DNA from: Isurus oxyrinchus
Taxonomy: Eukaryota
Assembly: GCA_026770705.1 (NCBI GenBank)
Contig: JANJGN010000010.1
Location: 39,928,001 to 39,992,000 of the forward strand
Reading direction: 5' to 3'
Length of the DNA: 64,000 bases
Position numbers and translations under genes: made by a program
Shown: positions 1 through 64,000 of the stretch, one piece after another
Layout of the letters: every line of letters starts with the position of its first letter
How positions within the stretch are numbered: position 1 is the stretch's first letter
Notes under the pieces: model-generated
The model's database searches: none
Told to the model about the DNA's origin: nothing
What the model saw: the letters and a program-made list of their open reading frames with translations, nothing else

Positions 1-149
1 CTCGCTTTTAATCTGCTTTCTGCAGCTTTTGTCACTTTGAATCTGAAGCTTGGGACCTTTCTCTCTGCCTCTCACTCTTAACTTCACTTAAGAGGACCTT
101 TTCCAGGTTCTTGTCCTTCCTTTTGACTAAAATGTCTGATTAGGACTTT

Positions 150-951
150 CACAGAATCACACAGAGCAGAAAAAGCCTTTTAGCCCATCAAGTCTGCATC
201 GATACGTGAGAAACACCTGACCTACCTACCTAATCCCATTTACCAGCACTTGGCCCATAGCTTTGAATGTTATGACGTGCCAAGTGCTCATCCAGATACT
301 TTTTAAAGGATGTGAGGCAACCCGACTCCACCACCCTCCCAGGCAGTGCATTCCAGACTGTCACCACCCTATGGGTAAAAAAGATTTTCCTCACATCCCC
401 CATAAACCTCCTGCCCCTCACCTTGAACTTATGTCCCCTCGTGACTGACCCTTCAACTAAGGGGAACAGCTGCTCCGTATCCAGCTGTCAATGCCCCTTA
501 TAATCTTGTACACCTCGATCAGGTCGCCCGTCAGTCTTCCCTGCTCCGATGAAAACAACCCAAGTCTATCCAACATCTCTTCATAACTTAACTGTTGCAT
601 TCCAGGCAATGTCCTGGTGAGTCACCTCTGCACCTCCTACAGTGCAATCACTTCCTATAATGTGGTGACTAGAACTGCACACAGTACTCCAGCTGTGGCC
701 TCACCAAGGTTCTATACCACTCCAACATGACCTCTCTACTTTTGTAATCTATGTCTCGATTGACAAAGGCAAGTGTCCCATATGCCTTTCTCACCACCCC
801 ACTAACATGCCCCTCCGCCTGCAGAGATCTACGGACACACACGCCATGCTCCCTTTGTTCCTCAGAACTTCCTAGTGTCATGCCGTTCATTGAATACTTC
901 CTTGTCAAATTACTCCTTCCAAAGTGTATCACCTCACATGTTTCAGGGTTA
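150..951 (-). mobile_element. CR1 LINE 3' fragment (duplicate of 14021-14822)
   Basis: ORFs 669-932 and 230-421. Confidence 0.9.
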
Positions 952-4136: not shown

Positions 4137-4347
4137 AATGACTTTCTCCAGTACACCTGAAATATTGACACCTTCCAACAGTGTGTTCTAATCCAACTTT
4201 CCAATGATTTTATAATCCAGAGTTAAAGTTTCAAAAGTTGCTCTCCCATTGAAATCCATCCTGAGACTATCTGTATGCTTATTGTAACAGACTATCTGAC
4301 TGAGTGCACAATAAGGATAGAAATTATATACTTGGCATGGTGTTTAC

Positions 4348-4425
4348 CTCTTTCAGAGGGAGCAGTCTTGTTTTCAGGAAGTATTCTTTCAGTATCACCT
4401 TCATTTTCTTTTGGTTTTTGTTGCC
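4348..4425 (-). CDS. Cytoplasmic spacer exon S5 (same peptide as S3/S4)
   Basis: 78-nt duplicate, offset 13871 from S4. Confidence 0.55.
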
Positions 4426-16400: not shown

Positions 16401-19400
16401 AGTAGGACACCCAGGGCCATCCACTCAAGGTGATGCAAGGGTGTCCAGCCATTCCAAATCCCCTCGGCCAGAGACCCCATCAACTCCAATTGGTCAGACA
16501 GAGTAGGTCGACCTGCCCCCCAGCTGGTGACCTTTAGCAGGACAGGGCACTTCAGGCCTCAGCGCTCCAGAGGACACCAACTAAAGTCATCCCAGACAAT
16601 AGGGCATAGCTATCAGCAGGCTGCCTGCACTTCTGATGCACAGGCATCTCCATTCACCCAGGAGGACAGAGGTTTGCAGCTGCGAGTTGACTGCCAATCA
16701 CCAGCATGCACTTTGTAGGCATCCCCTTCCTTCTCTCCCATCATCACTAGCTCTGACTGCAGCCGATGGAAAATGGCTGAGTGTGAATAGCAGCTCTGCA
16801 GCTTTCTGCGATCTCGATGTTATGAGAGCCCTCTGGGCCAGACAGGCTGCTGTGTGGGCCTCACCAGATACTGAGGATTTCAAATGACCATAGCTCTCAC
16901 AGTTTTTCCATGATTTTTAGGGTGTTCCTTTCATTGTCCAGTTGTGCTGACCTTGACCTCCATCCACCTGAGAAGAGCCTCTTCCCACCTGAATGTTTTG
17001 CAATTGGACATCGAGGGCATTGTCTTGCTATTGAGCTGCCTTTCTGTAGTGATGGTTCAGGTTACTTTTCATACCCACTCAACCACCTTTTACCCTCCCC
17101 CTGTCATTCACCAACTTCCCCCCCACCCCAGCACCATCGACCCCCCTAATGTGACTTTCACTCTCCCCTCTGTAACCCTTCAACCTCCCCATTACACTGT
17201 ACCTATCATTATCAATCTTCACCTGCCTTCCCTCCCTGCAAAGACTACACCCGTTACTGCACCCATGCCCACTTGCCCACTCCCCTTTTTGGTGCCAACT
17301 TTGTTGTCCCCTTCAATGACCCTCCTGATGAGCATTACACCCACCAAACACACACCCTGACGCTCCCACCCATCCCTTCTTGCCATCAGCGCCCTCAGTT
17401 CTACCCCCAGTACTTTGTCATCGACACTGCTGACCACACCCTATAACACACTGTTCCACACTCCCTGCTCACTCCATCTACTTTGTAGCCTTCCACTGCC
17501 CCTCCTGCAGACTGACAACACCTTCATCTCTTCCAATCCCGCTTCATGCCCCCAACATCCCCTTCCCGTGCCTTCCACACCTTCTTTCCATGTGTACCAT
17601 CTGTGATGGTGGCTCCCGTCACCCAAGAGAAGACTGATCCTCCTCAATGGGGAAGGCAGCATCGTGTGCCTGCTAAGTCCTGGAAGTCACCCTCGCTCTG
17701 CACTTGCCACATTAGTTCATTCGTGAAACAGAACAGTATAAATTCCCGCTAACAGTGTGGTGGATTTGATGGGGGTGCAAGATCCTATTCATTTGGTCTG
17801 GTAATTTGCATTCTGGAGATGCAAAATGGGTTCCTGACGTTCACCAGCGGGAAAGTCGACCCACCATTTACCTGCCACGAAAGGTCGGGTGAACAAGATT
17901 CCAACCTGATCTCCCGATATCAGAAAACTGATCTTTGGACTCTCGTCACATCTCCTGCTTCCACCCACTACGATTCTCCCCGGTGGTGGGAGGGGACGAT
18001 TTCGTCCAATGACTTTCTCCAGTACACCTGAAATATTGACACCTTCCAACAGTGTGTTCTAATCCAACTTTCCAATGATTTTATAATCCAGAGTTAAAGT
18101 TTCAAAAGTTGCTCTCCCATTGAAATCCATCCTGAGACTATCTGTATGCTTATTGTAACAGACTATCTGACTGAGTGCACAATAAGGATAGAAATTATAT
18201 ACTTGGCATGGTGTTTACCTCTTTCAGAGGGAGCAGTCTTGTTTTCAGGAAGTATTCTTTCAGTATCACCTTCATTTTCTTTTGGTTTTTGTTGCCCTTA
18301 AATAACAACAAGGTCAATATATATTATCCAGCAGACAAATTGATCTGAATCAATACCATTTGAACCTCAATCTGGCATTATCACAAGTAGATCATTCTAA
18401 CTCTTGTTCAAGTTACTTCTACTAGGAATTTTTGAAAGCTGACAAGAGCACTTATATTCCAACTTTCTCTCTTGCATTCTGGTTAAAACACAAATTATGA
18501 ACCGATCTGATAGCAATATGTTTTGAACAATTATGATTGTTTGGTTTTCATTTGCTGCTGACTCACTTTCTCAAACTACTTGTGCGCTGTGCTCAAATTG
18601 TGTTCTCTTTGTTCCTAACTTTTTTATTAATAAGCTGCTGGACCACTGTTCCAGCCACTTTAAAGGATGATTTGACATTACACATTTGGTGCCAGCTTTG
18701 TAAGTAATGCTGGTTTTTGCTCCAGTAGAATTAATGAACTGAAAGTTCATTTGGAGATCAAAACTATGGGAATCATAAACTTTATTGTGTAGATACATAC
18801 AAAGTGCTCTGCTTTAATGTTTACTGGGTTATTGGGTTGAGTAGATCAGGATGGCCAGATAGTTCTTAATTATAAGATAAGAAATCCAGAAGTAATTTGA
18901 TACTCAGTAGCCTATAATGTAATGCTGAATGGGGTGTGTCACGCTCACGCGGTACAAACCTATTAATTGTAAATATGAACTTATGGGGCAGAATTTTAAC
19001 CTGGGCGTGCGAGGTCAGTATGGGCGGTCGGGAATCCAAATGCCACCTGAGATTGGCAGCGCTCTGTGAATAAGGCCAGCCTAGTGTGATCCACAGCCTG
19101 GAATGTGTGCGAAGGAGCAGCTGGGGGGCGGGGCCATGATGTCCACCTTGTCCAATGGCGACCCGGCGGCGGATTCTAATGTGGCCTCGGCAGCCCCTGG
19201 AAGGCTGCCACCAAGGGACACGGAAATGTTGCCAATGGAGACCATAGTGGGTGCACACGGCAGGAAGAAAGGCAGCAAAGTTGGGCAGTCGGCCCCGTGT
19301 TTTTCGGACGAGTGTCTTTCAGCCCTACTGGAAGAAGTGGCAGTGAGGAGAGAAACCTTTGTCCCAAAGGAACAGGAGGAGGATGCCTCCTCACCTCACC

Positions 19401-22400
19401 AAAATGACCTTAGAGGTGTTGACACTGAGGTTCAGCAGCCACGACGCCGTGAGATGCACATGGGTCCAGTGGTGTAAGTGCTTCAACGATCTGCTGCGAT
19501 CGGAAAGGGTGAGTCCCATGTTGGCATGGGTCACTTTACAGAAGAGTTAAGGGCTAGCCACCCTCCCGCCCTTGTGTACCTCAGAGGTGTTTGAGTGTGA
19601 GTGGCAAAGGTCAATGAGGCAGGATCTGGCCAGGAGGGTGAGCCCTGGCTGCTTGCACTGAGTGCCATGTGGCCCCAGGGTCAGGAATTGGCTGAGGCAT
19701 GCAAGGTGTTCCTCAGGTGGGATTAGACAGGCAGCAATGATCCTGCAGGTAGAGAGTGGACTAATCAATGCTCCTCTGCCCTTTCAGGAGAAAACATCCC
19801 ATAACAATGCAGAGAGGTCGCAGACTGGAGGGGGACCCTCACACCTCATCATCCTCTCGCATTACAAGCAGGAGGCCCTGAAGCTGGGGAGGCACCATGC
19901 ACCTCGATCAAGCAGCCGTGGTGAGGTTGGGCTGCCAGAGGGAGGTAAGAGTGCAGTGCACTGAGGTCAGAATATCAGTAATTGATACCATCCCAGAGTA
20001 GTCTCTATATTGATGCGAGCCTGGAACCTGGAATCCCCACTGATAATCGAAAGACAAGGGCACCATGATGCAAATCTCTGTTGCACCAGGTGCCAGGCAT
20101 GAACAGTGACAGTTTCATGACTCAAACTAAGGACATGTCCTTCTTCCCCCTTTTAGGCTCACCAGCAGTTCTTTAGGAATAGCCTGAAGGCCAACCTCTG
20201 ACCCCTGAGGACCACAATGCTGAGCACACACCAGCGTCACATCCACTCTGCCAAGCAAGTATCAGCGCAGATACCAGCACCTCGGTGGGCATAACATTGC
20301 TGGGTAATCTATCAGTGCACATTGGTGAGGGCACTTCACACTCACTTGAGGTGCAGGCGGAGGCAGAGAGTCCCCAGAGTGTCAGCTGTTGCAGAACTGC
20401 TGGGGACCAGGACAATGCTCAGTCAATGGCTGATGATGGGCTTCTGGAGTCATCCATGAGGCAGCAGATTCTGGATATCCAGCAGAGTATGTGGGAGGAT
20501 CTGGTGGAGATACATGAGGGAATGCGTGACATGGTGTCCATTGTGGAGGAGTCCATGTACAGCATAAACAGTGTTTGGCTCTCATGTCCAGAAGCAATGC
20601 CTCCTTCATGGAGAGGAAGGTGATTCCCATGGAAAGGCTCCTCCATGGGACTTAATCAGGGGTTCCTAGGAATGTGCTCAGACCTGCAAGCCCTCACACC
20701 GGCAATGACCTCAGCTGGTCAGTGTCAGTGTGGGAGATGGATTGGGCACCCAGTCTACCAGCTAAGTACCCGTTCATCAATGAGCAGGGAGGTCCAAAGC
20801 GTTGGCACATGACGTTGGCAGACAAGCTGCCTGTTGTCGCTGCGGGCTCCTTTCAGGGCGCTCTGGATGATGGCAGAGGCTCCTCTGCCCCAATGCCAGT
20901 GACATGGTATCTGAAGAGGCTGCAGTGACTGAGGAGTTGCCAGTCATGGCACTGGCCACGCCTTTCCCGGCGAAGCCAGCAAGGCTCCACGATCAGAGGA
21001 CGCTCGCCAAGGCCATCAAGGCCAACAGGACAGCAGAGTGAGCAGGCTGTCTCCAATGCCGGTGCCAGCGAGGGGGAAGCACCTAGACGGAGCACTTGCA
21101 AGCGAAATCTTAAAGGACATGAAGCACAACACAGCCTGATCACCGGTGATATTTGGTTCTCCCATTTTTCTTCATTTTTAATGGTGTGATGAAAACACTG
21201 GTTCATGTTCATTTCTGCTATTTTTAACCTTCACAAGTAAATGAGATGTTATTTTGTGCAACTGGCCTCTGTATGCTTCATTTGGATACATCAGGACACA
21301 GTGTAATGGAGCAGGGAATGTACAAACCATCAGATGTATGTTGTAATTCTGGCACCTCAGCACTTAAGGAATTCTCTTTCTTGCTTAAATCTAATGCATT
21401 TTTGAGGGGACGAGTTACTCTTTGGTCCTGATAACTGCTCTGCTGAAATTTCCCAGTGAAATAAATTCTTTGCTTCCTGCTCCCCTTTCCTCTTCACAGA
21501 TGTAACAATGTGCACCACTTCTGGACTGAACACAGTAACTTCCCAACTCAGATTGGTTTCCTCACCATCTATGATTTCACGAGGTTTCTTGATATCACTA
21601 ATTGAAGGTGGAGCTGGAAAACAAAAGATATTATTGAGATATAAACTCTTATGTTCCAACTTCTTCTATTTATTCTTATTTAGACACAAATTAGGAACTG
21701 AACAAACAGGAATGTTTATTGAACAATTAGACGGACAATTAATAGGTTCTCAGTTGCAGATGTCCCACTTTCTCTAAACTACATACAAGTTCTGCGCAAA
21801 CTGAGGTCCCTTCATCATACTGGGCTATTAACGAGCTAATGAACCACTGTTTGAGCCTCTTCGAGTGAATGACTTGTTGTTACTCAACTTGTGGCAGCTC
21901 TGTAAGTAAAGTTAGTTTCAGCCAGCAGGATTAGTGAACTGCAAGTTGTAGTGTACAGCCACCCTATGGGAATCGTGAACTTATTTTGGAGATGGACAGG
22001 TGGATTCAATTATTGCAGTCCATGTTGGGACCAACAACATGGTAAAGAGAAGGAAAGAGATCCTATTCGGAAACTATCAAGATCTAAGAGTTAATCAAAG
22101 GACAGCATCTCAAAAGTTATAATCTTTGGATTATTTCCCAAGCCACATACAAAACGGCATTGGGATAAATCATTTAGGGAGATGAACACATCATTGAATG
22201 GGTGGTGTGGGAAAGAGGGCTTCTTGAAGGACCTCCCGAGTCACTTCAGAGCATGAGCCAGTTTCTTGATCATATGTTCCAGGAGGTGGCCACCTCATAG
22301 GCAGTAAGAATTCAGGATATTAGATGGGTGATCATCCAGAAGAGTAGGAAGAGAGAAGAAGTGCAGGCCTCTTCAGACTATGTGCCACTCTGAAACCGGT

Positions 22401-25400: not shown

Positions 25401-28400
25401 ACAGTATAAATTCCCGCTAACAGGGTGGTGGATTTGATGGGGGTGCAAGATCCTATTTGGTCTGGTAATTTGCATTCTTGAGATGCAAAATGGGTTCCTG
25501 ACGTTCACCAGCGGGAAAGTCGACCCACCATTTACCTGCCACGAAAGGTCGGGTGAACAAGATTCCAACCTGATCTCCCGATATCAGAAAACTGATCTTT
25601 GGACTCTCGTCACATCTCCTGCCTCCACCCACTACGATTCTCCCGGTGGTGGGAGGGGACGATTTCGTCCAATGACTTTCTCCAGTACACCTGAAATTTT
25701 GACACCTTCCAACAGTGTGTTCTAATCCAACTTTCCAATGATTTTATAATCCAGAGTTAAAGTTTCAAAAGTTGCTCTCCCATTGAAATCCATCCTGAGA
25801 CTATCTGTATGCTTATTGTAACAGACTATCTGACTGAATGCACAATAAGGATAGAAATTATATACTTGGCATGGTGTTTACCTCTTTCAGAGGGAGCAGT
25901 CTTGTTTTCAGGAAGTATTCTTTCAGTATCACCTTCATTTTCTTTTGGTTTTTGTTGCCCTTAAATAACAACGAGGTCAATATATATTATCCAGCAGACA
26001 AATTGATCTGAATCAATACCATTTGAACCTCAATGTGGCATTATCACAAGTAGATCATTCTAACTCTTGTTCAAGTTACTTCTACTAGGAATTTTTGAAA
26101 GCTGACAGGAGCACTTACATTCCAACTTTCTTTCTTGCATTCTGGTTAAAACACAAATTATGAACCGATCTGATAGCAATATGTTTTGAACAATTATGAT
26201 TGTTTGGTTTTCATTTGCTGCTGACTCACTTTCTCAAACTACTTGTGAGCTGTGCTCAAATTGTGTTCTCTTTGTTCCTAACTTTTTTATTAATAAGCTG
26301 CTGGACCACTGTTCCAGCCGCTTTAAAGGATGATTTGACATTACACATTTGGTGCCAGATTTGTAAGTAATGCTGGTTTTTGCTCCAGTAGAATTACTGA
26401 ACTGGAAGTTCATTTGGAGATCAAAACTATGGGAATCATAAACTTTATTGTGTAGATACATACAAAGTGCTCTGCTTTAATGTTTACTGGGTTGAGTAGA
26501 TCAGGATGGCCAGATAGTTCTTAATTATAAGAAATCCAGAAGTAATTTGGTACTCAGTTGCCTATAATGTAATGCTGAATGGGGTGTGTCACGCTTATGC
26601 AGTACAAACCTATTACTTACAAATATGAACTAATGGGGCAGAATTTTACCCTTGGGGTGCGGGGTCAGTGGGGTGGCCAGGAATCCGACTGCCACCTGAG
26701 ATTGGCAGTGCTCTGCCAATTAAGGCCAGCTTAGTGTAATCCACAGCCTGGAGTGTGTGCGAAGGAGCAGGTGGGGACGGGGCCATGATGTCCACCGGGT
26801 CCAATGGCGACCCGGCAGCGGATTCTAATGTGGCCTCGGCAGCCCCTGGAAAGCTGCCACCAAGGGACACGGAAATGTTGCCAATGGAAACCGTAGTGGG
26901 TGGAAACAGCAGGATGAAAGGCAGGAAGGTTGGGCAGTCGGCCCCATGTTTTTTGGACAAGTGCCTTTCAGCCTTCCTGGAAGAGGTCGCGGTGAAGAAA
27001 GAAACCTTGTCCCCAGGGACAGGAGGAGGAGGCCCCCTCCCCTCAGAAAAAAGGCCTGGGAGGAGTTGACACTGAGGGTCAGCAGCCACGACGCGGTGAG
27101 ATGCACATGAGTCCAGTGGTGTAAGCGCTTCAACGATCTGCTGCGATCAGGAAGGGTGAGTACCATGCTGGCATGGGTCATTTTGCAGAACAGGTAAGGG
27201 CTGGCCACCCCCCACACCCCCCACACCCCTCCACAGTGGACCTCAGAGGTGTTTGAGTGTGAGTGGCAAATGTCAATGATGTGAGCCTCAAACCCGGAAT
27301 CCCCATTGATAATCTGAAGACCAGGGCACCCATTCAAATCTCTGTCTTATCAGGGTGCCGGGCATGCACAGTGACAGTTTCATGATTTAAACTAATGACA
27401 ATGCCTTCTTCCCCCTTTTAGGCTCACCAGCAATTCCTTATGTGGAGCCTGAAGACCCAGCCCTGACCCCTAAGGACCAGCATGCTGAGCACGCACCAGC
27501 GTCACGCCCACTCTGTCAAGCTGGCACCAGTGCGATACCAGCACCTCGGTATGCATAACATCACTGTGTAGTCTAACGGTGCACATTGGTGAGGGCACTT
27601 CACACTCACTTGCGGTGCAGGCGGAGGCAGAGAGTGCCCAGAGCGCAGGCAATTGGAGGACTGCTGGGGACCAGGAACATGCTCAGTCAATGGCTGATGA
27701 TGAGCCTCTGGGGTCATTCATGAGGCAGCAGATGCTGGATGTCCAGCAGGGTGTGTGGGAGGATCTGGCAGAGATACATGAGGGAACGTGTGCCATGGTG
27801 CCCATGATGTAGGAGTCCAAGCGGTGCATAAGCACTGCGTTGGCTCTCATGGCCAAGTGTAGTGCCGCCTCCATTGAGAGAATGGTGACTCTCATTGAGA
27901 GGCTACTCCAGGGATTCAAACAGGGATTCCTGGGAATGTGCTCAGACCTGCAAGCCCTCACACTGGCAATGACCTCAGCTGGTCAGTGTCAGTGTGGGAG
28001 ATTGGGCACCCAGCTAGGTGCCCGTCCATCAATGGTGAGCAGGGAGGTCCAAAGTGACCCAGCGTTGGCACACGAGCTGCCTGTCATCTCTGCAGGCTCC
28101 TCTCAGGGCACTCTGGACCATGGCAGCAGCTCCTCCGCCCTTCTGCCAGTGGCTATAGCATCTGATGAAGCTGCGGCAACTGGGGAGGGCCTAGGCAGGG
28201 CCAGCCCAGGCTCCACAGGCCAGAGGATGCCTGCCAAGGTCATCAAGGCCAAAAGGACAGCAGAGTGAGCAGGATTTCTCCACTGCCAGTGCCAGCGAGG
28301 GGGTAGCACAGCTGATTCGGCTGCCGACCTGAAAATGGAAATGACGCGAGGTGACTTTGTGAGTTCCACCCGACGTCATCCCGCAGCATTTTATGCGTCG

Positions 28401-37400: not shown

Positions 37401-40400
37401 TTTGCAGCCCCCTCCATAGGATAGTGTTGGTGGGGATTTACAGAGCCTGCAGAATTAGTGAACTGAGATATGCATAAAGTGCTCTTTGTGAACTGAACTG
37501 AGAACATCAGGATGGCCAGACAGTTCTTAGCATTATATAAAGAGAGACCCTGGTGTAATGCGGTACTCAGCAACCTATAATGTAACAGTGACAGTGCATT
37601 CGCCATTGTGACTACTTAAACAAAATTTCCAAAAGTATTGACCCATGAAAGTACCACCTTCAAAATAGCATTTATCATGGTTGTTACGAATTTGCTTTGG
37701 GTAGAAGCATCAGCTAAATTACTATAATAATAATTAACAATATAATATTCAAATTCAGCCATCGCATTAAAGCAGTGGGTGAGTTGAACATTTCTGTCTT
37801 CGCTCTGAAAAACTAAATTAAGTTGATTTTTATGTGTCTGTGCCCACAACTGATTTTGTCCATGTATGAATGGCTCTTTACACAAAAAGGTTCCCCACCC
37901 CTGCCCTAAACCAAAGCCACCAAAAAGCTTCAAATAAACAAGCATTCCTTTTATAATAAAAAAGTAGCAAATGCTGGAAACATTAAGCAGGTCAGGCAGC
38001 ATCTGTGTAGAGAAACAGAGTTAATGTTTTAGACCGATGATCCTTCATTAGAACAGATGAAGTATCACAACCTGAAATGTTAACTGTATCTCTCTCCACA
38101 GATGCTGCCTGGCCTGCTGATTGTTTCCAGCATTTTCTGTTTTTATTCTAGATTTCTAGCATCTGCAGTACTTTGCTTTTGTATTTGTATTCTTTTCACC
38201 TGTTATTGGTGGGACAATGCTGTGGTTAACATGAACATTTCCCTCAGTACACCTGCAATTCTGTCACTGTCCTCGATTCTCTTCTGAGGTACTCTACCAA
38301 CTTTTCAGACTTTATGAGATTCAAAGAAAAGTTTGGAAAGCCCCTCTTACATTGAAATCCAGGCTGAGATTATATGTGTTTTTATTGTAAGAGAATATAT
38401 ACTGAGTGCCGAATGATAAGAATCAAAATTATGTACTTAGCATAAATATTTACCTCTTTTATTGTGAGGAATCATCTCAAGAACGGCACCACCAGTATCA
38501 TCTTCACTTTCTTTTGACTTTTGTTGTCCTGAACCACAATGCAGAAAAAAATATATCAGCAGGCACACAAACTGACCTGAGTTGAATCCTGAATGTATCA
38601 ATTTATGTGACATCATTCTAGATTCTCATTTAAATGCCTTGTATTAGAAATTTTTGATACCACTTTGATGAAACATTTGTTTCATTGGTCTTTCATTGTT
38701 CAAGTATAATAAAGCAGAACTAAATGTTTGCTTATTGTGAACATTGAAGTGAGAAATGTCATAATGACAACTATTTGTTAATTTCCAGCTGTTCAATGAT
38801 GTTTAATCTGTTTATTTATAATCAGTGTGCAGAATGTCACCCGAAAACATGGTAATCTATATTTAAAAGCAACAGAAACAGAATATTTGTGAGGCATGCT
38901 CAGCTGATGTCAACGTGTTTTATTTAACACTCACACATGTCCCACCTGCCAAGCTAAAAATTCTGATCATGAAGTATGAACTGAAAATGGACACTTTCTG
39001 GGAGCAGAAATGGAGCAAGAGGTCAGCCTGGAACTGTAAGCAAACTCAGCTAATTTTCATATCTAGACAATGCTTCAGAAAATCATTAACCTTCCTCCAC
39101 TAATGGCTATATTTCTCCAACTAAATAAAACACTGGGTTCACAGGATTTGGTAAATGGAAGGCAAATAGTATTTCAAACCCTCTATAAGTTGGTGTCATG
39201 ATTTCCAGCTGAAGGTTTTCATAATCATATGTCCATAAGTTTGTGTGATGTACAAAATGTAGAAATTACCTGCTGTGACCTTCAGTACTGTGCTTTCAGT
39301 ACAGGTTCCCTCACTGGTGTCCTGTTTAACTTCAACAATTAATTCAGCACCATCATCCTTGGATACATCAGGACACAGTGTAACGGAGCAGGGAATGAGG
39401 AAACCGTCAGATGTACGTTGTAATTCTGGCACCTCAGCACTGAAGGAATCATCTTTCTCACATAAATCACATACATTTTTGAGGGGACTTGTTACCCTCT
39501 TTGGTCCTGATAACTGCTCTGCTGAAATTTTCCAGTGAAATAACTTCTTTGCCTTCTGCTCCCCTTTCCTCTTCACAGATGTAACAATGTTCACCACCTC
39601 TGGACTGAACACAGTAACTTCCCAAATCAGATTGGTTTCCTCACCATCTATGATTTCACAAGGTTTCTTGATATCACTAATTGAAGGTGGAGCTAGAAAA
39701 AAAAAGTCATTATTGTGATATAAACTCTTATGGTCCAACTCTCTTCTATGTATTCTTATCTAGACACAAATTGGGAACTGAATTGACAGGAATGTCTATT
39801 GAACAACTAGGTGCACAATTAATAGGTTCTCAGTTGCAGATGCCTCACTTTCTCCAAGCTACATACAAGTTCTGCTCAAACTGAGTTCCCTTGATTACAC
39901 TGGGCTATTAACAAGCTAATGGACCACTGTTTGAGCCTTTTCGAGTGAATAATTTGTTGTTACTCAGCTTGAGGCAGCTTTATAAGTAAAGTTAGTTTCA
40001 GCCAGCAAGATTAGTGAACTGCAAGCTCTAGTGTAGAGCCACCCTATGGGAATCGTAAACTTTACTATGTAAACACACACAGGGGAGAATTTCCCCCCGG
40101 TTCGGGGGGAGATGTTCAGGAGCAGGTGCTTGCAGGTGGGCCTCCAGTCAGTGCCCACAATCAGGGCTGCGCTGCCATTTTACGTGGGCAAGCCGATTAA
40201 GTAATTAAGGCCCACCCAGCGTAACATCTGCCAGCAAGTGCTATGCGCTCCCTGTGGAAGCGGGGGGAAATCTCCTAAGTCGGGAATGCGCTCTTACGTG
40301 CATGTGCATGAAAGTGCACGCTCATCTCCCTGAGGAAAAATGCTGCCTCAGGGACATCAGCGACAAATTCAAAAATGGTAAATGCGCAAACATAAAATTT

Positions 40401-43400
40401 CCCTGACATGTCCCCTCATGTGACACTGTCACGAGTTGGCACATGGCCATCACTTTTTTCAAACTTTAAAAACAATTTTAAAACCTTGATGAAACCTCAT
40501 CCCACCCACGGATGAGGTTTTATGCTTTTTCTGAAGCCCGCCAGGTCTCCCGGCCTGACCGCCAACTTTAAGGTTGGACAGGCAAGTCCATTAACTACTT
40601 TAATTACTTTTTAAACAGCCTCAATCGGCCATTGACAGGTCGGCGGGCACACAGCTGATTCGGCTGCGACCCCACCCACCTGAAAATAGAAATGACGCGG
40701 GGTGACTTTGGGAGTTCTGCCTGACATCATCCCATGTCATTTTACGAGTCGGGCCCCGCCCCTCGCTCGCCAACCTCAATATCCTGGCCACAGTGTTCTT
40801 CTATACTCAGCTGAGGTCATCAAGTTGGTCAGATAATATTTGGCGTTATATGGCAATAAAACTCTGTTAATTTAGTATTCAGCAGCTTATACGCTAAATG
40901 GAATGTATTAATCATTGCTAATATCTAACAGAATCCCACATCGAGGCCTGTCTACAGGACCTTCAGTCTTCCAGTTGGCTTAGCTGGTAGCAATCTCAGT
41001 TTTAATTCATAATCTTGTGGGTTCGAGCTCCACTCTCAGGCTTGAGCACAGAATCCAGGTGACACTTCAGTGTTCGACTGAGGGAGTGCTACATAGTTGA
41101 AGGTGCCAATTTCTCAAGCATGTATTAAACAAGGGACTATCTGATTGCTCAGGTGGATGTAAAAGATCCCTTGACACTTTTATAAGAAGAACAGGCTACT
41201 CTCTGGTTATAGTAAATCATTATTTTCTCTCAACCAATGCCACCAAAAAAGCCCAGAATAGTCTACAACATTAAAGGTGGGTGGAGGTAATGTTTTTACC
41301 CGTTTGTTAGTCTGTTTGTACGTCCGTAAACATTATATTTTTAAAAACTAATGGACAGATTTCAACAAAAATTAGTACACAGATAGGTGATGGTCCAGAA
41401 AAGAATGGATTAGTTTTTGGTGAAGATGCAGATCTGGATTCAGATCCTGTTTTGTTTAAAAAATGTATCCTTTAACATTGGGAGATAGGGAAAATCGTAT
41501 TTTTTTTAAAAGAATGTTGTGAATTCTGTCAGCCACTGTGGTCATATTTGTCACAGCTATCAAAATGTGAGCAGTGTTTTCAGAGCAGCTTGTTGGATGT
41601 GCATTGGCCTAAAGCCTCCTCAGTTTTTAAGCTCTTTATAAAAGTATTGATATTTTCAGCTTTGTGGTTGCAGAGCATCAACCAGGCAGGAAAATGCCTC
41701 AAGGAAGAGCTGTATAATTATAATAATGTTGAGTTCACACAGCGTGGCAGGGGTATGTGCTCTATTGAGCCCCCTCTTCGTTTGTTATTTGTTGTTTTTG
41801 GGACCTTGCTGAGCATATTTCAATGATGATTTCCATTACACCTGCATTTCAGTCACTGCCCCAGAATCTCTCCTGTGATGCTGAACCAACTTTTGAATCT
41901 TTGAGAGAATCAGAGTTAATATTTCAATTTTGTATGACTCTTCTTCAGTGCAAAACGTTAACTCTGTTTCTCTCTCTACACAGATGCTGCCAGACCTACT
42001 GAGTTTTTCCAGCATTTTCTGTTTTTATTTCAGGTTTACCACATCCACAATATTTTGCTTTTATTTTGAAACTTGCAGTCTGGATAATGAAAAGTTTGGA
42101 CTGACCCTGTCCCATTGAAATTTACCTGAAATTATCTGTCTCCTAATTGTTGTTGAATATATGACTGAGTGTGTTCAGATTAAATTGATAAGAACGGAAA
42201 TTATGTACTCAGCATAAAGATTTACCTCTTGGAGATTGAGAACTCTGCTTCTCAATAAGAGCTCTGCCAGTATCATCTTCAATTTCTTTTGCTTTGCTTT
42301 GTCCTTAAACAACATAAAGCAGAACCAAACATCTGGTTATTATCAAATTTATACTAAGTTATAGCAGTGCGAGTTTTCTGTCCTGCAGTAGGTTTTTGGC
42401 CCGTCAGACCATCCCAAATGAACACAGCTACAGGACATGTATCCACCTCAAATTTCTCTGGTGCAGAATCATTGAACTATATTGTGAAGTGGAGACACTG
42501 TGACACATAAGGGTGGAAACAGTATCTGGCCAATTTTCTCTGGACTTTGGTGACATCTTATATAGAAGTACAGGCTCAGAATGCAGTTAGTGTGACCATT
42601 TATGTGCAGAATTGGGGGAATCCAGGTTAGGTAGAAACCATAGAAATTGATCCCATTTAACAGGTACCGTATATCAGCTACCAGTGTGGATAGCCAGACA
42701 GATAGGCAGAATACGAATAATACCAACATTGGAGCAGCAGATTGTCAAAAGTAGGAGGAGGAGGAGGGAAAGCTTAGTGTGGTATTTGTAAGAGATTCGA
42801 TAATTAAGGGGACAGATAGCATTTGTTGTAAGCAGGATCGAGAGTCCTGTATGGTTTGTTGTCTAATTAGTGCTGGGGTGAGGGACATCTCAAACTGGCA
42901 TGAAATTATTTCAGAGATGGATGGGTGGATCCAATTATTGGAGTCCACGTTGGAATCAACAACATGGTAAAGAGTAGGAAAGAGATCCTATTCAGAGACT
43001 ATCAGCATCTAGGAGCTAAATAAAGGGCAGCATTTCAAAGATTATTATCTCTGGATTATTTCCCAGGCCACATACAAATCAGCATTGGGATAAATAAACT
43101 AGGGAGGTGAACACATCATTGAACAGGTAGCGTGGGAAAGAGGGCTTCTTGAAGGACATCTGGAGTCACTTCAGAGCATGAGCGAGTTTCCTGGATCATT
43201 TGTTCCAGGAGGTGGCCACCTCATAGGCACTAAGAGTTCAGGATAGCAAATGAGTGACCATCTGGAAGCGTAGGGAAGAGCAGGAAGTGCAGGTGTCTTC
43301 AGGATGTGTGCCAACCTGAAACTGATACTCATCACTGGCGACTGCTGGATGCCAACACCCAGAAAGAGTGCAGTCCTCATCATGGCACCAACGGGCAAAT

Positions 43401-46400
43401 GATTGCATGGGGGGAACAGCAAAGTTTAGCAATGCAGTAGAGGAGATTCCATAGTTACGCAGGCAGACAGACATTTCTGTTACACTCATCTTGAGTTCCC
43501 GATGGTGTGGGGCATTGGAACTAGGTCTCAACAAGACTGGGACCAATGTCCTCAGGGGAAGGTTCATTATTTTGGTTAGGGAGGGTTCAAACTTAATTGT
43601 GGGGTGCTGTAGGGAGACGAACAGTTGGGAGCATTGAGCACCAGAGTATTGAAATAGAAAAGTGGAATAAAGGTGCTTAAAGGAGGGACAGTGTTCAATT
43701 GTACTAGAAAAGGAAGTAGTAACATATTAGGTAGCAGCAAGCTAAGAAGGATTATGAAGAATACAAAGACAGGTTGAGAATGCATGTATGTAAACGCACA
43801 AAGTGTGGTGAATAAGCTTTGTGAGCCACAAGCAAAATAGTTGTGTGCAAACATGGAGTAGTGGCAATAATAGAAGTCTGGCTTAAAAATAATGAAAACT
43901 GGGTACTTAATGTTCATAGATCCAAAGTGGTCAGAAGAGGTGGGGAAGGAATAAAGGAAGATGGGTGGCAGTACTGATTACAGAAGAGATTGTAGTGTTG
44001 GAAAGAGACAATGTCCTTAAGGGATTAAGGCAGATTCCACTTGATTGGAGTTGAAACTCAAAAAGTGTATGGCCTCCAAATAGTGAGAGAAAGGGATGGA
44101 GGGGCAATTCTGGAGGAAAATCTTAGAGCTTTGTAAGAAATGTAGAATAGTTATATTGGGGTATGTTTGTTACCCAGATATTGACTAGGATAATGTCAGA
44201 GGAACGGGTATGGAGGAGGAGGACTTTTTGAAATGTGTTCAGGAGAACTTCCTTGATTAGTATGTTTTTGGTCCAATTAGAAATGAGGCATTGCTGGATC
44301 TGATGCTGGGGAATGAGGTTGGCCAATTAGATCAATCATCTGTGCCAGAGTAATTGGGTAAGAGTGATCATTGTATCATAAGTAATGGAGAAGAGCAAGG
44401 AACAATCTACATAGAACTTCTAATTTGGAAGAGGGCTAACTTCAATGGGATGAGAGGGGATTTTGCCTAAGTTGGACAAAAAAATGTACCTCTAACAGAA
44501 CAATGGGTGACCTTTAAAGAACAGATGTTTCAAGCATAAGCCAGGTATACTCCATCAAAAGGGAAAAGCAGGAGAAACAAAACTAGGGCTTCTTAGATGG
44601 CAAGAGCAATCAAGAATATGATGAATCAAAAAATAGGGTGTATGATGCATATCAGTCGAATTCCTCAAGTAAGAACCAGGCTAAATATAATACGTTGAGA
44701 AGAGAAGTAAAGAGGAAAATAAGATTTGCAAAGAGAGAGCACGAGAATAGAATTGCAACTAACATATTCTAACATATGATATCGAGTGTGGGATGTGGCA
44801 AACACTGAAAATGTTACAAAGCAACTGCAAGAGAATATGGATAGACTAGTAGAATAGGCATTCAGGAGGCAAAAGGACACTAATGCACTGAAGTGCTAGG
44901 TGATGCATTTTGCTGAAGGGATAAGGAGAGACAATCTATGGCAAAGCTAGTTCCAAAGAGTGTGCAGGGACAGAGGTTCTCATGCATAGATTTTTAAAGT
45001 TGGCAGGACATATCAAAAGAGGAGTTAGCAAATCAAATGGGATCACAGGCATCATAAGGAAAGATATTGAGTACAAGAGCTAGGAAGTTATGCTGAACTT
45101 TTATGAAACTCTGGTTAGGCCACAATTAGAGAGATTTGCGAAAGGTGTAGAAGATTAAGACAAATCTAGTTAAGGTAGATTAAAAAGGCTGACAGTACAA
45201 GGACTAGATGACACAGATTTAAGGTTTTGGGCAAGAGATGCAGGGGGGATGTGAAGAAGAACTTATTTTACGCGGGGAGTGATGATGACCTGGAACTCCC
45301 TGCCTTGCATGGTGGTGTGGGAGTGGGAAGTAGTCAATGATTTCAAAAGGAAATTGGATGGGAACAAGGGAAATGAACCTGCAGGGGATACAACAGACGA
45401 GTGAGACTGACTGGATTGCTCCACAGAGAGCCAGCATGGACTCGATAGACTGAATAGCATCCTTTTGTGCTGCAAGGACTTGTGATGAAAGGATTAACAG
45501 TCCCGTGGTGAAGCCAATGATTATCATAACGAGGCCAACTAATGCTAGTCAAAACCAGTGTTAGAGAAAACAAAGCAAATCCACAAATTGTGATTCCTTG
45601 CCAAGAAATCTTTCTGTAGTTCAATACATTAACAAATATTCAATATCTTTAATAAAATTTCCAAGCAAAAATTCCAATAATCAAGTAGTTCTCACTTTAT
45701 CATTTGTAGTTTTTCCTTATGAAAATGAAAAGGACCTTACTTTTATGTTTTTTGTTCCAGAAATAATATCCCAAACATACTGCACAAAGCACAACAAAGC
45801 CACAGATGCTTCCAATAATTGGTCCTATTGGTATTTGTTCTGTTAAAGTAGAAAACACAGACAACAGTTGAAAATTTGACAATAAATAAGTTGTATCATT
45901 TTCATATATATTCATTAGAAGCCATATCTGTCCTGTTTTTTATTAATCATGTCTGTTTATTTTCTAGAAGATGTGGTAGAAATGGGTACGTATTGATGTG
46001 AAATAGATGCAATCTTGATAACCTTAGCAGTGGTAGTCTGAAGCCAATCTCATGTGCATTTGGTCTTATGCTAAATTATTCAGGCTTACTTTTTAGTCAT
46101 CCTGGAAAATGTCCTTACAATGGGCAGAATTTTCTGTTTTTCAGACTAAGGGTGGAATTTTCTGTGCCCGCTGGCATCTGGCATGTTTGGGGGCCTGAGC
46201 AGACAATATGGCGAGAAGACCAAAATCAGTTTCAAGACGTCATGAAAATGCGTTGTAATACATCTGCATATCATTATAAGCCCAGCTCGCCAGGATCATT
46301 CTCCCATACTGGATCATCCGGTCACATCGGCATGTGTTTGTTTCACAACTGAACATAAGTGACATGCACCAGGCAAGTTGCACTTCACTCGGGACTTTGA

Positions 46401-49400: not shown

Positions 49401-52400
49401 TCCTTGGTCATCTGAAACCTATACACCCCCTCGCCCACCCCGGCAGGACTGTCTATTCCCCCACATCCTCCTTCCCCAGTCTGGTCTCTTCTGGTAGAGG
49501 GCAGCCATGCCTGTGCCCCACACCAGTTCCTGCAGGTAGAGTGCAGCCCTGCCAGCACTCCCCACACTAGTCTTGCCTGAGAACAGCTTTGCCAGCGGTC
49601 AGGAGTCAGAGCAGCAGCAAGAGATGGCAGCAGTGGTGCAGCAGGCAGGCTTACAATGTTGTACGCACCTTGAAGTTGTGACTCAAGTGAAGGCGGGCAG
49701 GTGCACAGAGGGTGAATGTGATTCCGGTGAGTTGTGATTTTAATAAGTATTCATGATATGCTAATACATGCAAATTGGGCTCCGGACATGGATCAGCAGG
49801 AAAGTCGACCTGCCATTAGACTGCCATGAAAGTCCTGTGGGGAAAATTCATTCCAACTTATTTTCCCGCTGGCGGATATCCCACTTTTGGCCTCATGCCC
49901 AATTTTGCGTTTCTGCCCACCACGATTCCCACCTCTGGCGGGAGCGGAAAATTCCACCCAATCAGTGGAACAGCTGCCAGCTCTGCCCTGCTTCAGAATT
50001 CTTCAATAACCCCTTCAGCTGCCAACAAAAGGCCATTTTTAAAATTTACTTTTTTTTTAAACAACTTCCTATGAGGTTGGGAGGGACACAATGACATTCA
50101 AACTCTAACCACACCCAATGTTCAATGATTAACTCCAGCCTGGAGTCCAGAGTTCAGGCATTGTAGCTGCATGGCTGACCTTGACACTCCCTATTTGTTT
50201 GCACTTGGTTAAGACAAGATGTGGTATATAAACTATCCCTAAACTTGTTATATACAAAATAGGGGTCTGCATTTGGCTGATACCAATCCTCTGAAGAGCT
50301 GGGTGAGGAAAATAGAAAAATCGAGATTCAAATAAAGGGGAAAATACTAGAACAACAGAAAAATCAAAGGGTAATTTTTTTGACTTCAGTATGACATGTC
50401 CATACCAATAACAAATGCTACAAGGTGGACAAGACAAGGTTTATATCCTGATTTCAATCAAACCAATTCTCCTATAAATTAATTTCAACTATCCTGAATA
50501 TAGAACACAAAATATCAGCCTCATTTTTGAAAAGGATTTAAAAAAAAACATTCTATCTCAGCAGTGTTCTCTTGTGCTGGGAAGACCTATTAAAGTTAAA
50601 ATCTGCTGACAAATATATTGGATGCCTGCCCCATTCACACTGTTTGCAGGGTTGGAGAAAAACACTGTGCATCACAGTAGAAAACCAGAATATACCATGA
50701 GGCAAGTTCAATTGGTCACAGATCAGCTGCTTTCACAGCACCCACAGGAACAGTATAACTGGGGGCCTGAGAAGCTAATATAATGCCTGTGCCAAAAGCA
50801 GATGATTTGTAACTATAGATGTTATGTGTGAGAAAGGTAATGAGAGCTTCACTACTGTAAAGAAATAAATAACCATAACCTGTACTCTTCTCTAACCAGA
50901 TCTTACCTTCAACTGAGTCAGCATCCAGCATAAAATTGCGAAGAAGGGTTTTATGCTTCACCACACATCTATAGTTAGTGCCATCACCCAATGTTGGTTC
51001 AATTCTTATTTTACTGGAAACACTGAATGTTCCATCACTGTTTGTAACTAAGTCATCAGTGGACTGGCTTTGTGTAACGTATTCCATTTTTCCATTTGAT
51101 AATATGAACCAACTAATATTGAGCTGTTTAGGAAAAAATTCCTGAACATCACACACCAGAAAGTGCTCTGCACCATTTACAGTTGTAATTTCTTGTCTGG
51201 ACATGCTGACTTTTGGCTGGGCTGCGTAAAAGAGAACAGTTGTTAGTTGTAAGTTGTTAATACATCATCTATACATATCAAACTAGACTTTACTGATTCT
51301 TGCTCTGGGAAACTTGAAAAATCCATCCTAGCTGTGGTATCCAAAAATCTACTGCATTGTTGCCATTTTCTTGTGTTTTTTGTTAACTTGCAGGATGATC
51401 CTTGAATATGGAGGCTGATGTGGTGGATGATGAGGATGAGGGGAACCCTATCATGATTGTGGGAGGGAGAGGAAGGGGTAAGAGCAGAAGTGTGTGAAGA
51501 TCTGACACGTTTGAGGGTCCTGTCGAGCATGCTGTGTGGGGGTTGGGGAAGGAAAAAGGAAAATATATTGGAAATGCTAGTATGGCAGATTGCATCATCT
51601 GAACAGATGTGGCAGAGAAAATGGGAGAAAGGAATAGGGGCGTTACAGGAAGCAGGAGGTGAGGAAGTGTAGTTCAGATAATCCATTTCTACAATCTCCA
51701 GCATAATGCTATCAACAAACACATCTTCCCTAGCCCTCCCCTTTCAGCAGTCCAAAGGAATTGTTCCCTCTGTGACACCCTGATCTACTTGTCAGTCATC
51801 CCCACCACCCCATTTCTATGGCACCTTTCCCTGCTAGCACAGGAGATGCAACACCTGCCCTATTACCTCCTCCCTTCTCACCATCCAAGGCCTAAAACAC
51901 TCCTTCCAAGTGAAACAGTCATTTGCTAGTATTTCTTTCAATTTAGTATACTGTATTCACTGCTGACCATGTGGTCTCCTCTGCACTGGGGAGACTGAAC
52001 ACAGACTGGGTTAACACTTTGTGAAATACCTCTATTAAGTCTGCAAGCATGACCCTGACATTCCTGTCACTTATTTCAATTCTCCAGCTTGCTCTCACTC
52101 TAGGCTTTCTGCCTTTGGCCTGCTGTGGTGTCCTAATGAAACTCAATACAAGGAACAGCACTTCCTCTTTTGACTGGGCATTCGAAAGCCTCCTGGACTT
52201 AACATTGAGCTCAAACATTTTAGATCATAACCTCTGCCTCTATTTTTTTTCTTTATTTTTGCTGGTTCATTTTTTTTCATTTGTTTTTCCATTTGTTCAC
52301 TTTGCATTTGGACCACTGCTAGCTAACCATTCACACCTCACCTGAACACATTTTTTGTTTCTTTTTATTATCCATTACCACAAAAACTTTTGTCACTTAT

Positions 52401-55400
52401 TCTCTCGTACCCTCCATCCTATCACAGACCTTCACCTTTGTTCTTCCTCCACTTCCAACCTTTCGCTTGCTCAAAACCAATTATATTTCTACCTTTCTTC
52501 AGTTCTGATGAAAAGCCATCATTGACCTTAGATGAGTTTGGAGACAGGGGGTATTTAATCAGGTAGGAGTGCTTGATCGTGGGATCCGGCACTGGAAGGA
52601 TTGAGGGAACTGAGAGGGCTGAAAGTCACCCCAAGTTCTTGCCTCCAACCCATTCCCCCCCTTCTTCCTGACCTCTGCCCCACCCTGTAATCACTCACCT
52701 CTGGCCTGGGGTCCCTTGCTGATCCTGATCCTTGGGTGAGTGCATTCTTTGCAGTGCCACCACTCCTAGTGGTGCTGACAGCAATGGAGTGCTGCCAGCC
52801 TCTGATTAGTTGGCATCACTCGGAGGGTCGGATTGTTCTCCCCACCGGGGTCTTTAATCCAGAAGAAGTCCCAACACTGACTACTTAAGTGGTTTAGTTC
52901 TTAGAAGAGTCATACAGTCTCAAAACGTTAACTCTGTCTTTCTCTCCACAGATGCTGTCAGACCTGCTGAGTCTTTCCAGCAATTTTTGTTTCGGATTTC
53001 CAGCATCCGCAGTATTTTGCTTTTATTTTTACTTAAGTGCATGATGGGCACTTAATACTGGTGGGGACATTCACCAATGGAAGCAACACGAGGCTCCTGC
53101 CCATTCTCCAGCCAGCAACAGAGACTGCCTTAGCAAGGATTAGATTCCACCATTAACTCTATTTCTTCCATTAATGCTGACCTGCTCAATATTTCCAACT
53201 TTTTTTTTCTGTTTTTATTCCATTTGCCTTTTTCTGTTCCCATTCATAACATTTTAATTACCTTTTTACAGACACCTAAGACTCTTGGAACCTCCACTGT
53301 TTCAAGCTTTTCACCATTTAGAAAATAATCTGACCTCTCCTTTCGTAGGTCCAAAGTGAATGACCTCACATTTGCCTACATTGAAATCCAATTGCCACAG
53401 TTTTGCCCATTCACTTAATCTATTAATTTGATGCTTCAATCCAAACTGCTTACAATGGTACCTTTCTTTGTGTTGTCAGCAAACTTGGATATGTGGCTTT
53501 CTATTCTATCTTCATAGTCATTAATGTAGCAAATAGGTGAAATCCTGTGGAACACCACTCGTCACATTCTGCCAATTAGAGTACTTGCCCATTACTTACT
53601 CTCGCTGTCTCCTGGTACTCAGTCAATGTTTTCGCAAGGAATAATTTACCTTCAATTCCATGAGTTTCAACTTTAGCATTAATTTTGTTAAGTCCCTGTC
53701 CCTAATTCAGTATTTGTTTCCTCGGGATGTCTGACAGGCTATTGTCTTCCTCTACTACAAAGACTGTTGCAAAATAATTATTCAACATTTCCGCTATTTC
53801 ATTATTTTTATTTACAATATCACCATTATCAGTTTTCAAGTGTCAAATTGCTCTCGAGCACTTCTTTAATTGTTATTTTTTTTAATTCATTTTGATATCT
53901 CTTCCAAGTTTGTTTTCGTACTTCCTTCTTATAGTTCTTACTGTTGCTGTCCCACCCAATGTCAGTTAACTATGTGAAAACTGCAATCTTTGTGATTTTG
54001 TCACTAACTGGTAAGCTCACTGAATCAGGAGAGCCAGAAGTTTAATATTTGGAATATATAGTTATCTTATGTACATTGCAAAAAAATATTATTGCATATA
54101 GCAGTAAATGCCCTGTTTTGAGTGTAACAGATATTTTTATAGCATATCAGAAAATGATTTAGTCTCTCTTACCTGACACTTGCATCACTGAACTCTTTTC
54201 TTCTTTATGGGGAGTAACAAAAACAATGCAGGTGTATTTTCCTTCTTCGCTGAGTTGTACATTTGGAAGGTAAAGTGAAGCATTTCCTTTCCGTAAAGCC
54301 TCATCAAAGATCTTTGCTCCTTCTCTCTTTGGAGAATGTTCTCCTCCGTCAAATACATAAACGTCTTTCTGGTTTGATTGTGATGTCAAAACCCATCGAA
54401 CAGCTATGTGTGTGAGGTCAGATTCCGGTTTATTAAATTTACACATTAGAAGAGCATCTTGGTTTGCTGAAATTTCCAATGGTGAGGGGAATATCTCCAG
54501 TTCTAAAGTTTCTTTAAAATAATTTAAAGTTTTAAAACATTAATTGACATAAAGGTAAATAATATCACATATAGATGAGGAGCTATTGTTAGGATCTTGG
54601 TAGAGATCAGTAACTTTGTTTTAGAGAAAGAGGAAATCCAAAATCCCAGTTATTTGCTAACACTAAATACTATCTTAGGTCACCTGCTATACTCTCAAAC
54701 CTAGAATCAACATCAGTTAAACATGAATTAACAGGTCAATTACAATTGATTATAATTTATAAATTACACATTACATGGCAAATAGAACTAAGACAGATCT
54801 TAGGAACTGGTGTGGCAGCCCATTCAGCATGTAAGACATCACTCTTAGTCACAAAGTAATAAGGAAGGATACATTTGAATTGGAGGCAGAGAGCAAAGTC
54901 TCACTAGATCTATCCCTGGGGTGTCCTGTGATGAGAGGATTAGTAAATTGGGTTTATATTCTCAGGAGTTTAGAAGAATCAGAAGTAATCTATTGCATCA
55001 TCTTGCAATAAAGGCCAACATGCCATTTGCTTTCCTAATTGCTTGTTGTACCTGCATGCTAACTTTCAGTATTCCTTGTATGAATGCAGCCAAGTCCCTA
55101 TCTACATCAACATTTACAAGTTTCTCACCTTTTAAAAAATATTCTGCTTTTTTATTTTTATAACCAAAGTGAATAACCTCACACAACCTGATATTATACT
55201 CCATCTCCCATCTCAGTGCCCACTCACTTAACCTATCTATCTCACTTTGCAGTCTCTTTCTGTTCTCCTCACAGCTTCATATTTCCACCTAGCTTTGTAT
55301 CATCAGCAAACTTAAATGTTACTCTCTGTCTCTTTTTCTTAGTCATTAATATAGATTGTAAATAACTGAGGGTCCAGCATTGATCTTTGTGGCACTCCAC

Positions 55401-63400: not shown

Positions 63401-64000
63401 ACTTCATCTGAAACAGATGGAAATGGGTTTGTACTCAAAAGAGTTACAGCCAAATATCCTTTGGGCTTGGCCTAAATAGCCAAGTGGTTATGGTACTGGG
63501 TTTGTAACCCTAAGATCGAGAGTTCAAATCTCACAATGGCAAACTATGAAACAATGTAACTTCATCTGAAACAGATGGAAATGGGTTTGTGCTCGAAAGA
63601 GTATCAAGAGTTCAAATCTCACAATGGCAAACTATGAAACAATGTAACTTCATCTGAAACAGATGGAAATGGGTTTGTACTCGAAAGAGTATCAAGAGTT
63701 CAAATCTCACAATGGCAAACTATGAAACAATGTAACTTCATCTGAAACAGATGGAAATGGGTTTGTACTCGAAAGAGTTACCCCCTCACCCATTAAAAAC
63801 TCGAAAGAGTTACACAGTTTGGCTTGGCATCGACTGTTCAGTCAAAGAGAAGGAAGGCAGCTTTTACAGAAAATGCTGGCTTGGCCTAAATAGCCAAGTG
63901 GTACTGGGTTTGTAACCCCAAGATCAAGAGTTCAAATCTCACAATGGCAAACAATGTAACTTCATCTGAAACAGATGGAAATGGGTTTGTACTCAAAAGA
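60467..64000 (+). repeat. tRNA-derived higher-order satellite (88-bp monomer; alternating 740- and 558-bp subunits; 1298-bp period), continues past the window edge
   Basis: Marker gcatcgactg at 60491, 61231, 61789, 62529, 63087 and 63827. Monomer atcaagagttc at 60681 and 60769. Confidence 0.97.
60873..60945 (+). pseudogene. tRNA-Thr(TGT)-like head inside the satellite (representative copy; two per subunit)
   Basis: A box TAGCCAAGTGG, D arm, anticodon loop TTTGTAA and B box GTTCAAATC in tRNA spacing. Acceptor, anticodon and T stems contain mismatches. Confidence 0.75.

Follow-up and report, generated by a model that had tools for sequence, protein, structure and literature searches.

A B7-H6-like gene of Isurus oxyrinchus with C1-derived, disulfide-free and probably cytosolic immunoglobulin domains behind its transmembrane segment

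C1-set domains are a hallmark of extracellular adaptive-immune proteins. What, then, is a C1-like domain without its cysteine pair doing behind a transmembrane (TM) segment? The question is raised by a 64,000-nucleotide stretch of the Isurus oxyrinchus genome (GenBank assembly GCA_026770705.1, contig JANJGN010000010.1, positions 39,928,001 to 39,992,000), here called the window, whose own numbering we use below. A reading made from the letters alone (the sequence-only reading) had marked 39270..39692 as a cytoplasmic Ig-like domain in which hydrophobic residues replace the canonical disulfide, and had proposed that a C1 exon was shuffled behind the TM and adapted to the reducing cytosol. The marked interval is exactly one exon on the minus strand: 423 nt flanked by AG and GT, in phase 1-1, with 140 whole codons. 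We refer to its domain as D1.

The exon belongs to a minus-strand gene whose internal exons are all in phase 1. The coding part of the leader exon, which encodes the signal peptide from the ATG (59938..59989), was located by tblastn with the N-terminus of a Carcharodon model (94% identity) and ends in a GT donor. It is followed by a B7-H6-like Ig V exon (54173..54511; Pfam V-set E 1.5e-10), an extracellular Ig C1 exon with the canonical Cys-Trp-Cys (50907..51221; Pfam C1-set E 8.8e-14), a TM exon of 99 nt in phase 1-1 and then the basic NKKHK (45741..45839), linker exon 1, whose acidic stretch plus LI (EIEDDTGRALIEK) is a candidate sorting signal (42226..42303), D1 copy 1, and linker exon 2 (38454..38528). 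A 992-nt spliced contig (run X1) contains V, C1, TM, and linker 1 and is joined to position 39692 over a CT..AC intron, with a short side of 46 letters. The linker 1-to-D1 joint is also found in run X3 (28 letters), and the D1-to-linker 2 joint in X1 and X5 (27 letters). That these runs derive from RNA is a guess; their joints follow GT-AG introns, and since they diverge from the window by a few percent, they probably come from relatives. This support covers V through linker 2, and no contig connects copy 1 with later D1 copies. In the spliced contigs, D1 thus follows the only TM of this signal-V-C1-TM gene with the frame kept. Near the 5' end of the D1 exon lie an overlapping cryptic acceptor and donor (39640-39655, and at the same place in other copies); in the Carcharodon and Cetorhinus models, one D1 starts or stops at that cryptic splice site.

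By structure-database matching, the ectodomain of this gene is nearest B7-H6 (NCR3LG1). The V exon alone has B7-H6 as its best single-domain PDB match (E 4.9e-11), and V plus C1 of the Mustelus homolog P0013, which stood in for a joined window protein, match B7-H6 at 9e-25 vs 6e-19 for CD276. We take the neighbors of the human B7-H6 locus to be RPS13 and KCNJ11. A partial RPS13-type match, 1 of 4 such matches, is located at C10:40.755 Mb, about 0.8 Mb from the gene, and on C10 an IRK-family match occurs only once, at 54.2 Mb.

The register of D1 was set by profile alignment to the gene's own C1 exon. The B-strand Cys is replaced by W23 (NLIWEV vs FLVCDV), the C-strand Trp by T37 (NIVTS vs NISWF), and the F-strand Cys by V119 (LIVEVKQ vs YRCVVKH); the corresponding B, C, and F residues of the intact copy at 10998-11420 are W, T, and I. 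These are the replacements that the sequence-only reading had named, and its further description also holds: the FSP/FFP and SDG motifs are retained, and the central insertion that it put at roughly 30 residues appears as about 31 unmatched columns. The domain is not Cys-poor. The copy at 39 kb has 6 cysteines (11, 74, 77, 101, 106, and 130), none of which aligns to a canonical B or F position. To place these residues in a family context, we use a position table of first post-TM domains, with 74 rows minus 8 isoform rows, leaving 66. Cys occupies the F position in 3/66 and the B position in 35/66, with Trp at the latter in 19/66; W53 is present in 60/66, P107 in 63/66, and R41 in 52/66.

The kinship of D1 with C1 domains is above chance, at the profile level only. 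Pfam on a single D1 yields no Ig family match, and the C1-set cut-off is not reached; we dismiss sub-threshold matches to PH_29 and a DUF as noise, given the predicted structure, the structure search, and the C1 profile match. Two of 17 family alignment members match Pfam C1-set at E<=1 (best 2e-4), and BLASTP of D1 against its own C1 gives E=0.001 across 34 aa. In hhalign, the 17-sequence D1 family profile matches a profile built of ectodomain C1s only at 96.5% probability (E 9.6e-10), vs 0.2% for a V profile; it reaches 99.1% against profile A2, which includes two post-TM D2 domains. The AF2 model of D1 (mean pLDDT 91.5, pTM 0.86) shows an Ig sandwich in which the insertion forms one additional strand (48-55); C1-set topology (ABED/CFG) has no C' strand. 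Structure searches with this model retrieve Ig folds with V domains on top (Z 11.3-11.6, rmsd 2.6-2.8, 112-113 aligned), and Foldseek returns V domains intermixed with MHC class II chains; V domains probably outrank C1 because of the extra strand. In the ESM Atlas, the best score is 0.89, with recognition under its threshold and Ig-type clusters, which we treat as a lead only. Profile match and confident sandwich together uphold the Ig assignment of the sequence-only reading. With W23, T37, and V119 at the Cys/Trp/Cys sites, D1 is, as judged from its sequence, C1-derived and not a canonical C1.

How widespread is such a domain? A word-index homolog search returns 21 proteins, all chondrichthyan; a search restricted to near length gave no match. 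One TM upstream of 1-8 D1 repeats and no TM downstream characterize 19 of the 21, and P0016 and P0018 are partial. Identity to the window D1 is 96% in Carcharodon, 89% in Cetorhinus, and 49% in Callorhinchus. A profile search extends the family to 236 representatives at E<=0.001, many with the layout V-C1-TM-(C1)n. The 30 named among the 150 listed matches come from sharks, rays, chimaera, bichir, coelacanth, lungfish, salamanders, frogs, a lizard, and a turtle, with no teleost, bird, or mammal among those 30; one, a toad homolog, is annotated NCR3LG1 and its alignment spans V-C1-TM-D1. Several models stand apart in layout. P0031, P0065, P0073, and P0081 (frog and turtle) combine V-C1-TM with long post-TM C1 arrays of up to about 2150 residues and form a second, more distant branch, and P0050, P0115, P0130, and P0148 have two or three hydrophobic segments ahead of D1, not one. 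The isoform pairs P0044 vs P0186 and P0180 vs P0183 differ by the TM exon alone, and secreted forms are predicted for them.

An unrooted tree of 105 domains over 119 columns, comprising 3 window domains and the domains of 19 chosen proteins (for Heterodontus and Stegostoma, only the first repeat was used), orders this diversity. All 20 ectodomain C1s fall in one group (100/99). Whether they come from cartilaginous or bony lineages, the post-TM domains cluster by position: D1 forms a group of 22 rows from chimaera to frogs (100/93), D2 a group of 13 rows (100/95), and D3, D5, and D6 likewise group by position, with D4 weaker. The Isurus window domain falls in an 8-row D1 subgroup with Heptranchias, Heterodontus, Stegostoma, and three Callorhinchus repeats (100/93). 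This tree assigns the window domain to position 1 of an array of post-TM C1 domains and rules it out as a recent duplicate of the gene's own C1 exon. The array is common to sharks, chimaera, bichir, coelacanth, lungfish, and amphibians, and since its domains group by position across both lineages, it predates the split of cartilaginous and bony fish. The same grouping indicates that a chondrichthyan subfamily, to which the Isurus gene belongs, dropped D2-D7, kept D1 alone, and tandemly amplified it.

Loss of the disulfide also differs by position. The canonical Cys pair is present in 20/20 ectodomain C1s, 1/22 D1, 13/13 D2, 14/14 D3, 0/11 D4, 2/9 D5, and 2/10 D6. Loss of the pair at 4 of 6 post-TM positions fits a cytosolic location. 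D1, behind the TM and without the canonical disulfide, is most likely cytosolic, a topology that we read from the one hydrophobic segment of the protein. The proposed adaptation to a reducing cytosol is in this respect supported by D1, D4, D5, and D6, which mostly lack the pair, but it is incomplete as an explanation: D2 and D3 retain an intact C-W-C in 27/27 domains although they too lie behind the TM, so that loss there is not forced. Loss of the bond is also described for the outside of the cell, where CD4 domains of fish, birds, and mammals are reported without a B-F disulfide, the B-strand Cys being gone (PMC4354306).

These observations allow for a different topology. The symmetric TM exon (phase 1-1 and a multiple of three) could be skipped to give a secreted V-C1-(Ig)n protein, the array would then be partly or mainly extracellular, and the Cys pattern would reflect evolution of the fold and not cytosolic redox. 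In 2/16 isoform pairs, from the toad Bombina and the stingray Hemitrygon, one model differs from the other by the missing TM exon alone, and in P0030, P0059, and P0095 D1 follows C1 directly; such models suggest that post-TM domains may be secreted too, and the uniform C-W-C of D2 and D3 points the same way. Against this, the sole contig across the region contains the TM, the pair is lost at most post-TM positions and in none of the ectodomain C1s, sequons, which hold 0.30 of Asn outside vs 0.06-0.21 behind the TM, are not enriched there, cytosol-type dileucines are enriched in D1, and the Isurus D1 has its 6 noncanonical Cys. We regard such a dual topology as unlikely, if still the main rival of a cytosolic array.

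What might a cytosolic tail of this kind do? In human B7-H6, an NKp30 ligand that is likewise a type I membrane protein with a V plus C ectodomain, the tail is described as Gag-like, with an ITIM and SH2- and SH3-binding motifs (PMC2715080). The shark tail, unlike that tyrosine-motif tail, consists of linkers and Ig repeats with almost no Tyr (1 in about 1470 residues of the Carcharodon model), and because of this it would not be expected to signal through ITIM or ITAM motifs. Its recurrent short motif is of another type. We take the acidic-dileucine consensus, presumably tied to clathrin adaptors, to be [DE]xxxL[LI]. This strict form occurs in the D1 loop of 21/55 rows outside the first 21 homologs, vs 2.7 expected from shuffles, and in 3/19 of the remaining rows, all Callorhinchus. 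A looser acidic-dileucine pattern, defined post hoc, is found in the post-TM linker of 11/12 elasmobranch subfamily genes vs 1.4 expected. Linker 1 of Isurus reads DDTGRALI, with Thr at -4, and does not match the strict consensus, nor does its D1 loop contain one. In this subfamily, the dileucine appears to have left the D1 loop for a linker exon.

We somewhat favor the reading that this gene encodes a B7-H6-family protein with a disulfide-free, C1-derived D1 in about five tandem cytosolic copies, forming a predicted scaffold-and-sorting tail. In such a protein, the V domain would, by analogy with human B7-H6, bind an NKp30-type receptor. Behind the membrane, the model places Trp23 and Val/Ile119 so that they would fill the core vacated by the disulfide and the C-strand Trp, in a sandwich with an extra C' strand. 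The acidic-dileucine motifs, which most family members have in the D1 loop and elasmobranchs of the subfamily in the linker exon, may recruit clathrin adaptors and in this manner set the amount of ligand kept at the surface. The conserved R41, W53, and P107 could support the fold or bind a cytosolic partner, and repetition of D1 would raise avidity for that putative partner. On this reading, the tail probably serves as a cytosolic scaffold that is multivalent and carries putative acidic-dileucine signals for sorting.

The Isurus genome contains 5 intact and 6 broken D1 copies. Downstream of linker exon 2 on the minus strand, the window contains a predicted linker exon of the type found in the Cetorhinus model (25882..25959), a broken D1 copy with a frameshift and 3' truncation (21282..21614), a predicted linker exon (18219..18296), D1 copy 2, which is intact and whose exon is predicted (10998..11420), a second broken copy, again with a frameshift and 3' truncation (7384..7716), and a further predicted linker exon (4348..4425), all placed by sequence. 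Three more intact D1 exons and C-terminal exons lie past the left end of the window (C10:39.856-39.926 Mb). Intact copies 1 and 2 share 78-79% amino-acid identity, with dN 0.115, dS 0.26, and dN/dS about 0.44. A 13.87-kb tandem unit of linker, broken D1, and intact D1 (1-10504 vs 13872-24403, 98.8% identity) runs on past the left end of the window and represents a recent duplication or assembly redundancy.

Such a locus could also be read without any role for copy number: the D1 repeats would be mainly a structural spacer or a by-product of unequal crossing-over, where one copy matters and the number drifts. D1 copy number does range from 1 to 8 across species, repeats are near-identical within Heterodontus (137-141 of 141 residues), 6 of the 11 Isurus copies are broken, and the 13.9-kb units hardly differ. 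However, D1 repetition is common to chimaera and several shark orders, W53, P107, and R41 are kept across the family, and dN is below dS between diverged copies. We judge this reading to be improbable, slightly more so than dual topology.

The origin proposed by the sequence-only reading fares less well. In the fullest version of it, a second copy of this gene's C1 exon arose behind the TM, lost its cysteines in adapting to the cytosol, and acquired a functional C-x4-C. The C1 and D1 exons are indeed both in phase 1-1 with FxP, DG, and DDG-type motifs in common, and ectodomain C1 adjoins D1 plus D2 in the tree, though at 99/75 and unrooted. Yet D1 groups with bony-vertebrate D1 and not with its own C1, which refutes a recent event, and D2 and D3 kept the pair. 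A C1-derived exon in frame behind the TM is what remains of the shuffling proposal; the shuffled exon being the gene's own C1 does not. As for the cysteines, each of the two intact copies in the window has C-x4-C, but PCSVTLCP itself, which had been ascribed to both, occurs in the 39-kb copy only, and the 11-kb copy reads PCSISLCP. Nor is C-x4-C a new or a conserved motif: C101 is an old family residue (51/66), C106 is rare (8/66), and the two occur together in 7/66. This scenario is, in our estimate, very unlikely in its full form. An ancient origin of D1 from an ectodomain C1 may nonetheless underlie the array, as the unrooted tree would allow.

Other cysteine arrangements were considered and set aside. 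A disulfide or metal site at C-x4-C was rejected in view of its occurrence in 7/66 and of the placement of C101 and C106 along a single extended strand in the AF2 model. CDLC (74-77) was rejected as a CxxC site, with C74 in 6/66, C77 in 11/66, and no counterpart in the 11-kb copy. A replacement B-E disulfide was rejected as well: B-Cys and C101 occur together in 28/66 and C101 without B-Cys in 23, and the bond is unavailable in the Isurus gene because its D1 has C101 without B-Cys.

As a last alternative, the cytosolic array might serve as bait for, or as a sensor of, pathogen proteins that try to strip the cell surface of B7-H6. Rapid turnover and amplification in particular lineages would then be accounted for; human herpesviruses are reported to down-regulate B7-H6 (PMC6514059), and the locus is an expanded cluster with broken copies. 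Against this, tested pairs show no sign of positive selection (dN/dS <= ~0.9, diverged pairs) and the repeats are homogenized, not diversified. We hold this alternative to be most improbable.

Several known systems invite comparison with a B7-H6-type protein that carries an amplified D1 tail. Intracellular Ig domains of the titin type in muscle are I-set tandem sandwiches that function without a B-F disulfide; they are soluble and cytoskeletal, unlike the Isurus D1, which is the C1-derived tail of an immune surface ligand. A second comparison is with uncharacterized V-C1-TM-(C1)6-7 proteins from sharks, bichir, coelacanth, lungfish, and amphibians (among them Carcharodon LOC121283083, Latimeria LOC102345720, and Callorhinchus LOC103174895), which have the ectodomain and a homologous D1 in common with the Isurus gene; neighbors of this type lie 80-250 kb from it on the same contig. 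These proteins have heterogeneous D1-D6/7, Cys pairs in D2 and D3, often a D1 B-strand Cys, and a dileucine within the D1 loop, whereas the Isurus gene repeats D1 only, has Trp for the B-strand Cys, and uses separate linker exons. Closest of all are the RefSeq models Carcharodon LOC121283378, Cetorhinus LOC144684897, and Callorhinchus LOC103174897/LOC121850342, which are orthologs or closest paralogs with the repeated-D1 layout; they are labeled "uncharacterized" and have 8, 4, and 3-5 repeats, respectively.

The family's proteins are thus already known as uncharacterized RefSeq models. In the literature searched, chiefly titles and abstract openings, none of the papers found describes B7-H6 with a cytoplasmic array of Ig domains, which does not establish its absence from print. 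New here are the D1-only amplified subfamily with Trp for the B-strand Cys, the spliced contigs, the per-position Cys table, and the apparent dileucine move. That the B7-H6 family has a conserved array of post-TM C1 domains implies that such domains were also in use at the cytoplasmic face of the membrane early in jawed-vertebrate history, and suggests that in human B7-H6 an earlier Ig tail gave way to the Gag-like one. The family also offers a natural series (both Cys, one, or none) for the folding of Ig constant domains without a disulfide, a matter relevant to designing antibody domains for use inside the cell. A broader history can be sketched only tentatively and may well be wrong: an ancestral jawed-vertebrate B7-H6 with a cytosolic array of C1 domains, a class familiar otherwise from the cell exterior, 1 cartilaginous-fish lineage in which the first, wholly disulfide-free domain became a copy-number-variable, multivalent docking polymer that tunes the clustering and trafficking of an NK-cell ligand, and a family that may toggle the array between cytosol and secretion through skipping of the TM exon.

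Between C10:39.63 and 40.08 Mb (L019-L058), there are at least 7 more V-C1 genes or remnants of the family, 5 with a TM exon and some frameshifted. In neighboring genes of this contig, V, C1, and TM exons precede different C1-type exons, some with both Cys. Immediately upstream of the leader exon, a nested tandem repeat occupies 60481-64000, with 100% identity at an offset of 1298 bases. Finally, 31950-35467 contains a pair of nearly identical retroelements that face opposite ways and have frames resembling reverse transcriptase and GIY-YIG; from these motifs, we take them to be Penelope-like.
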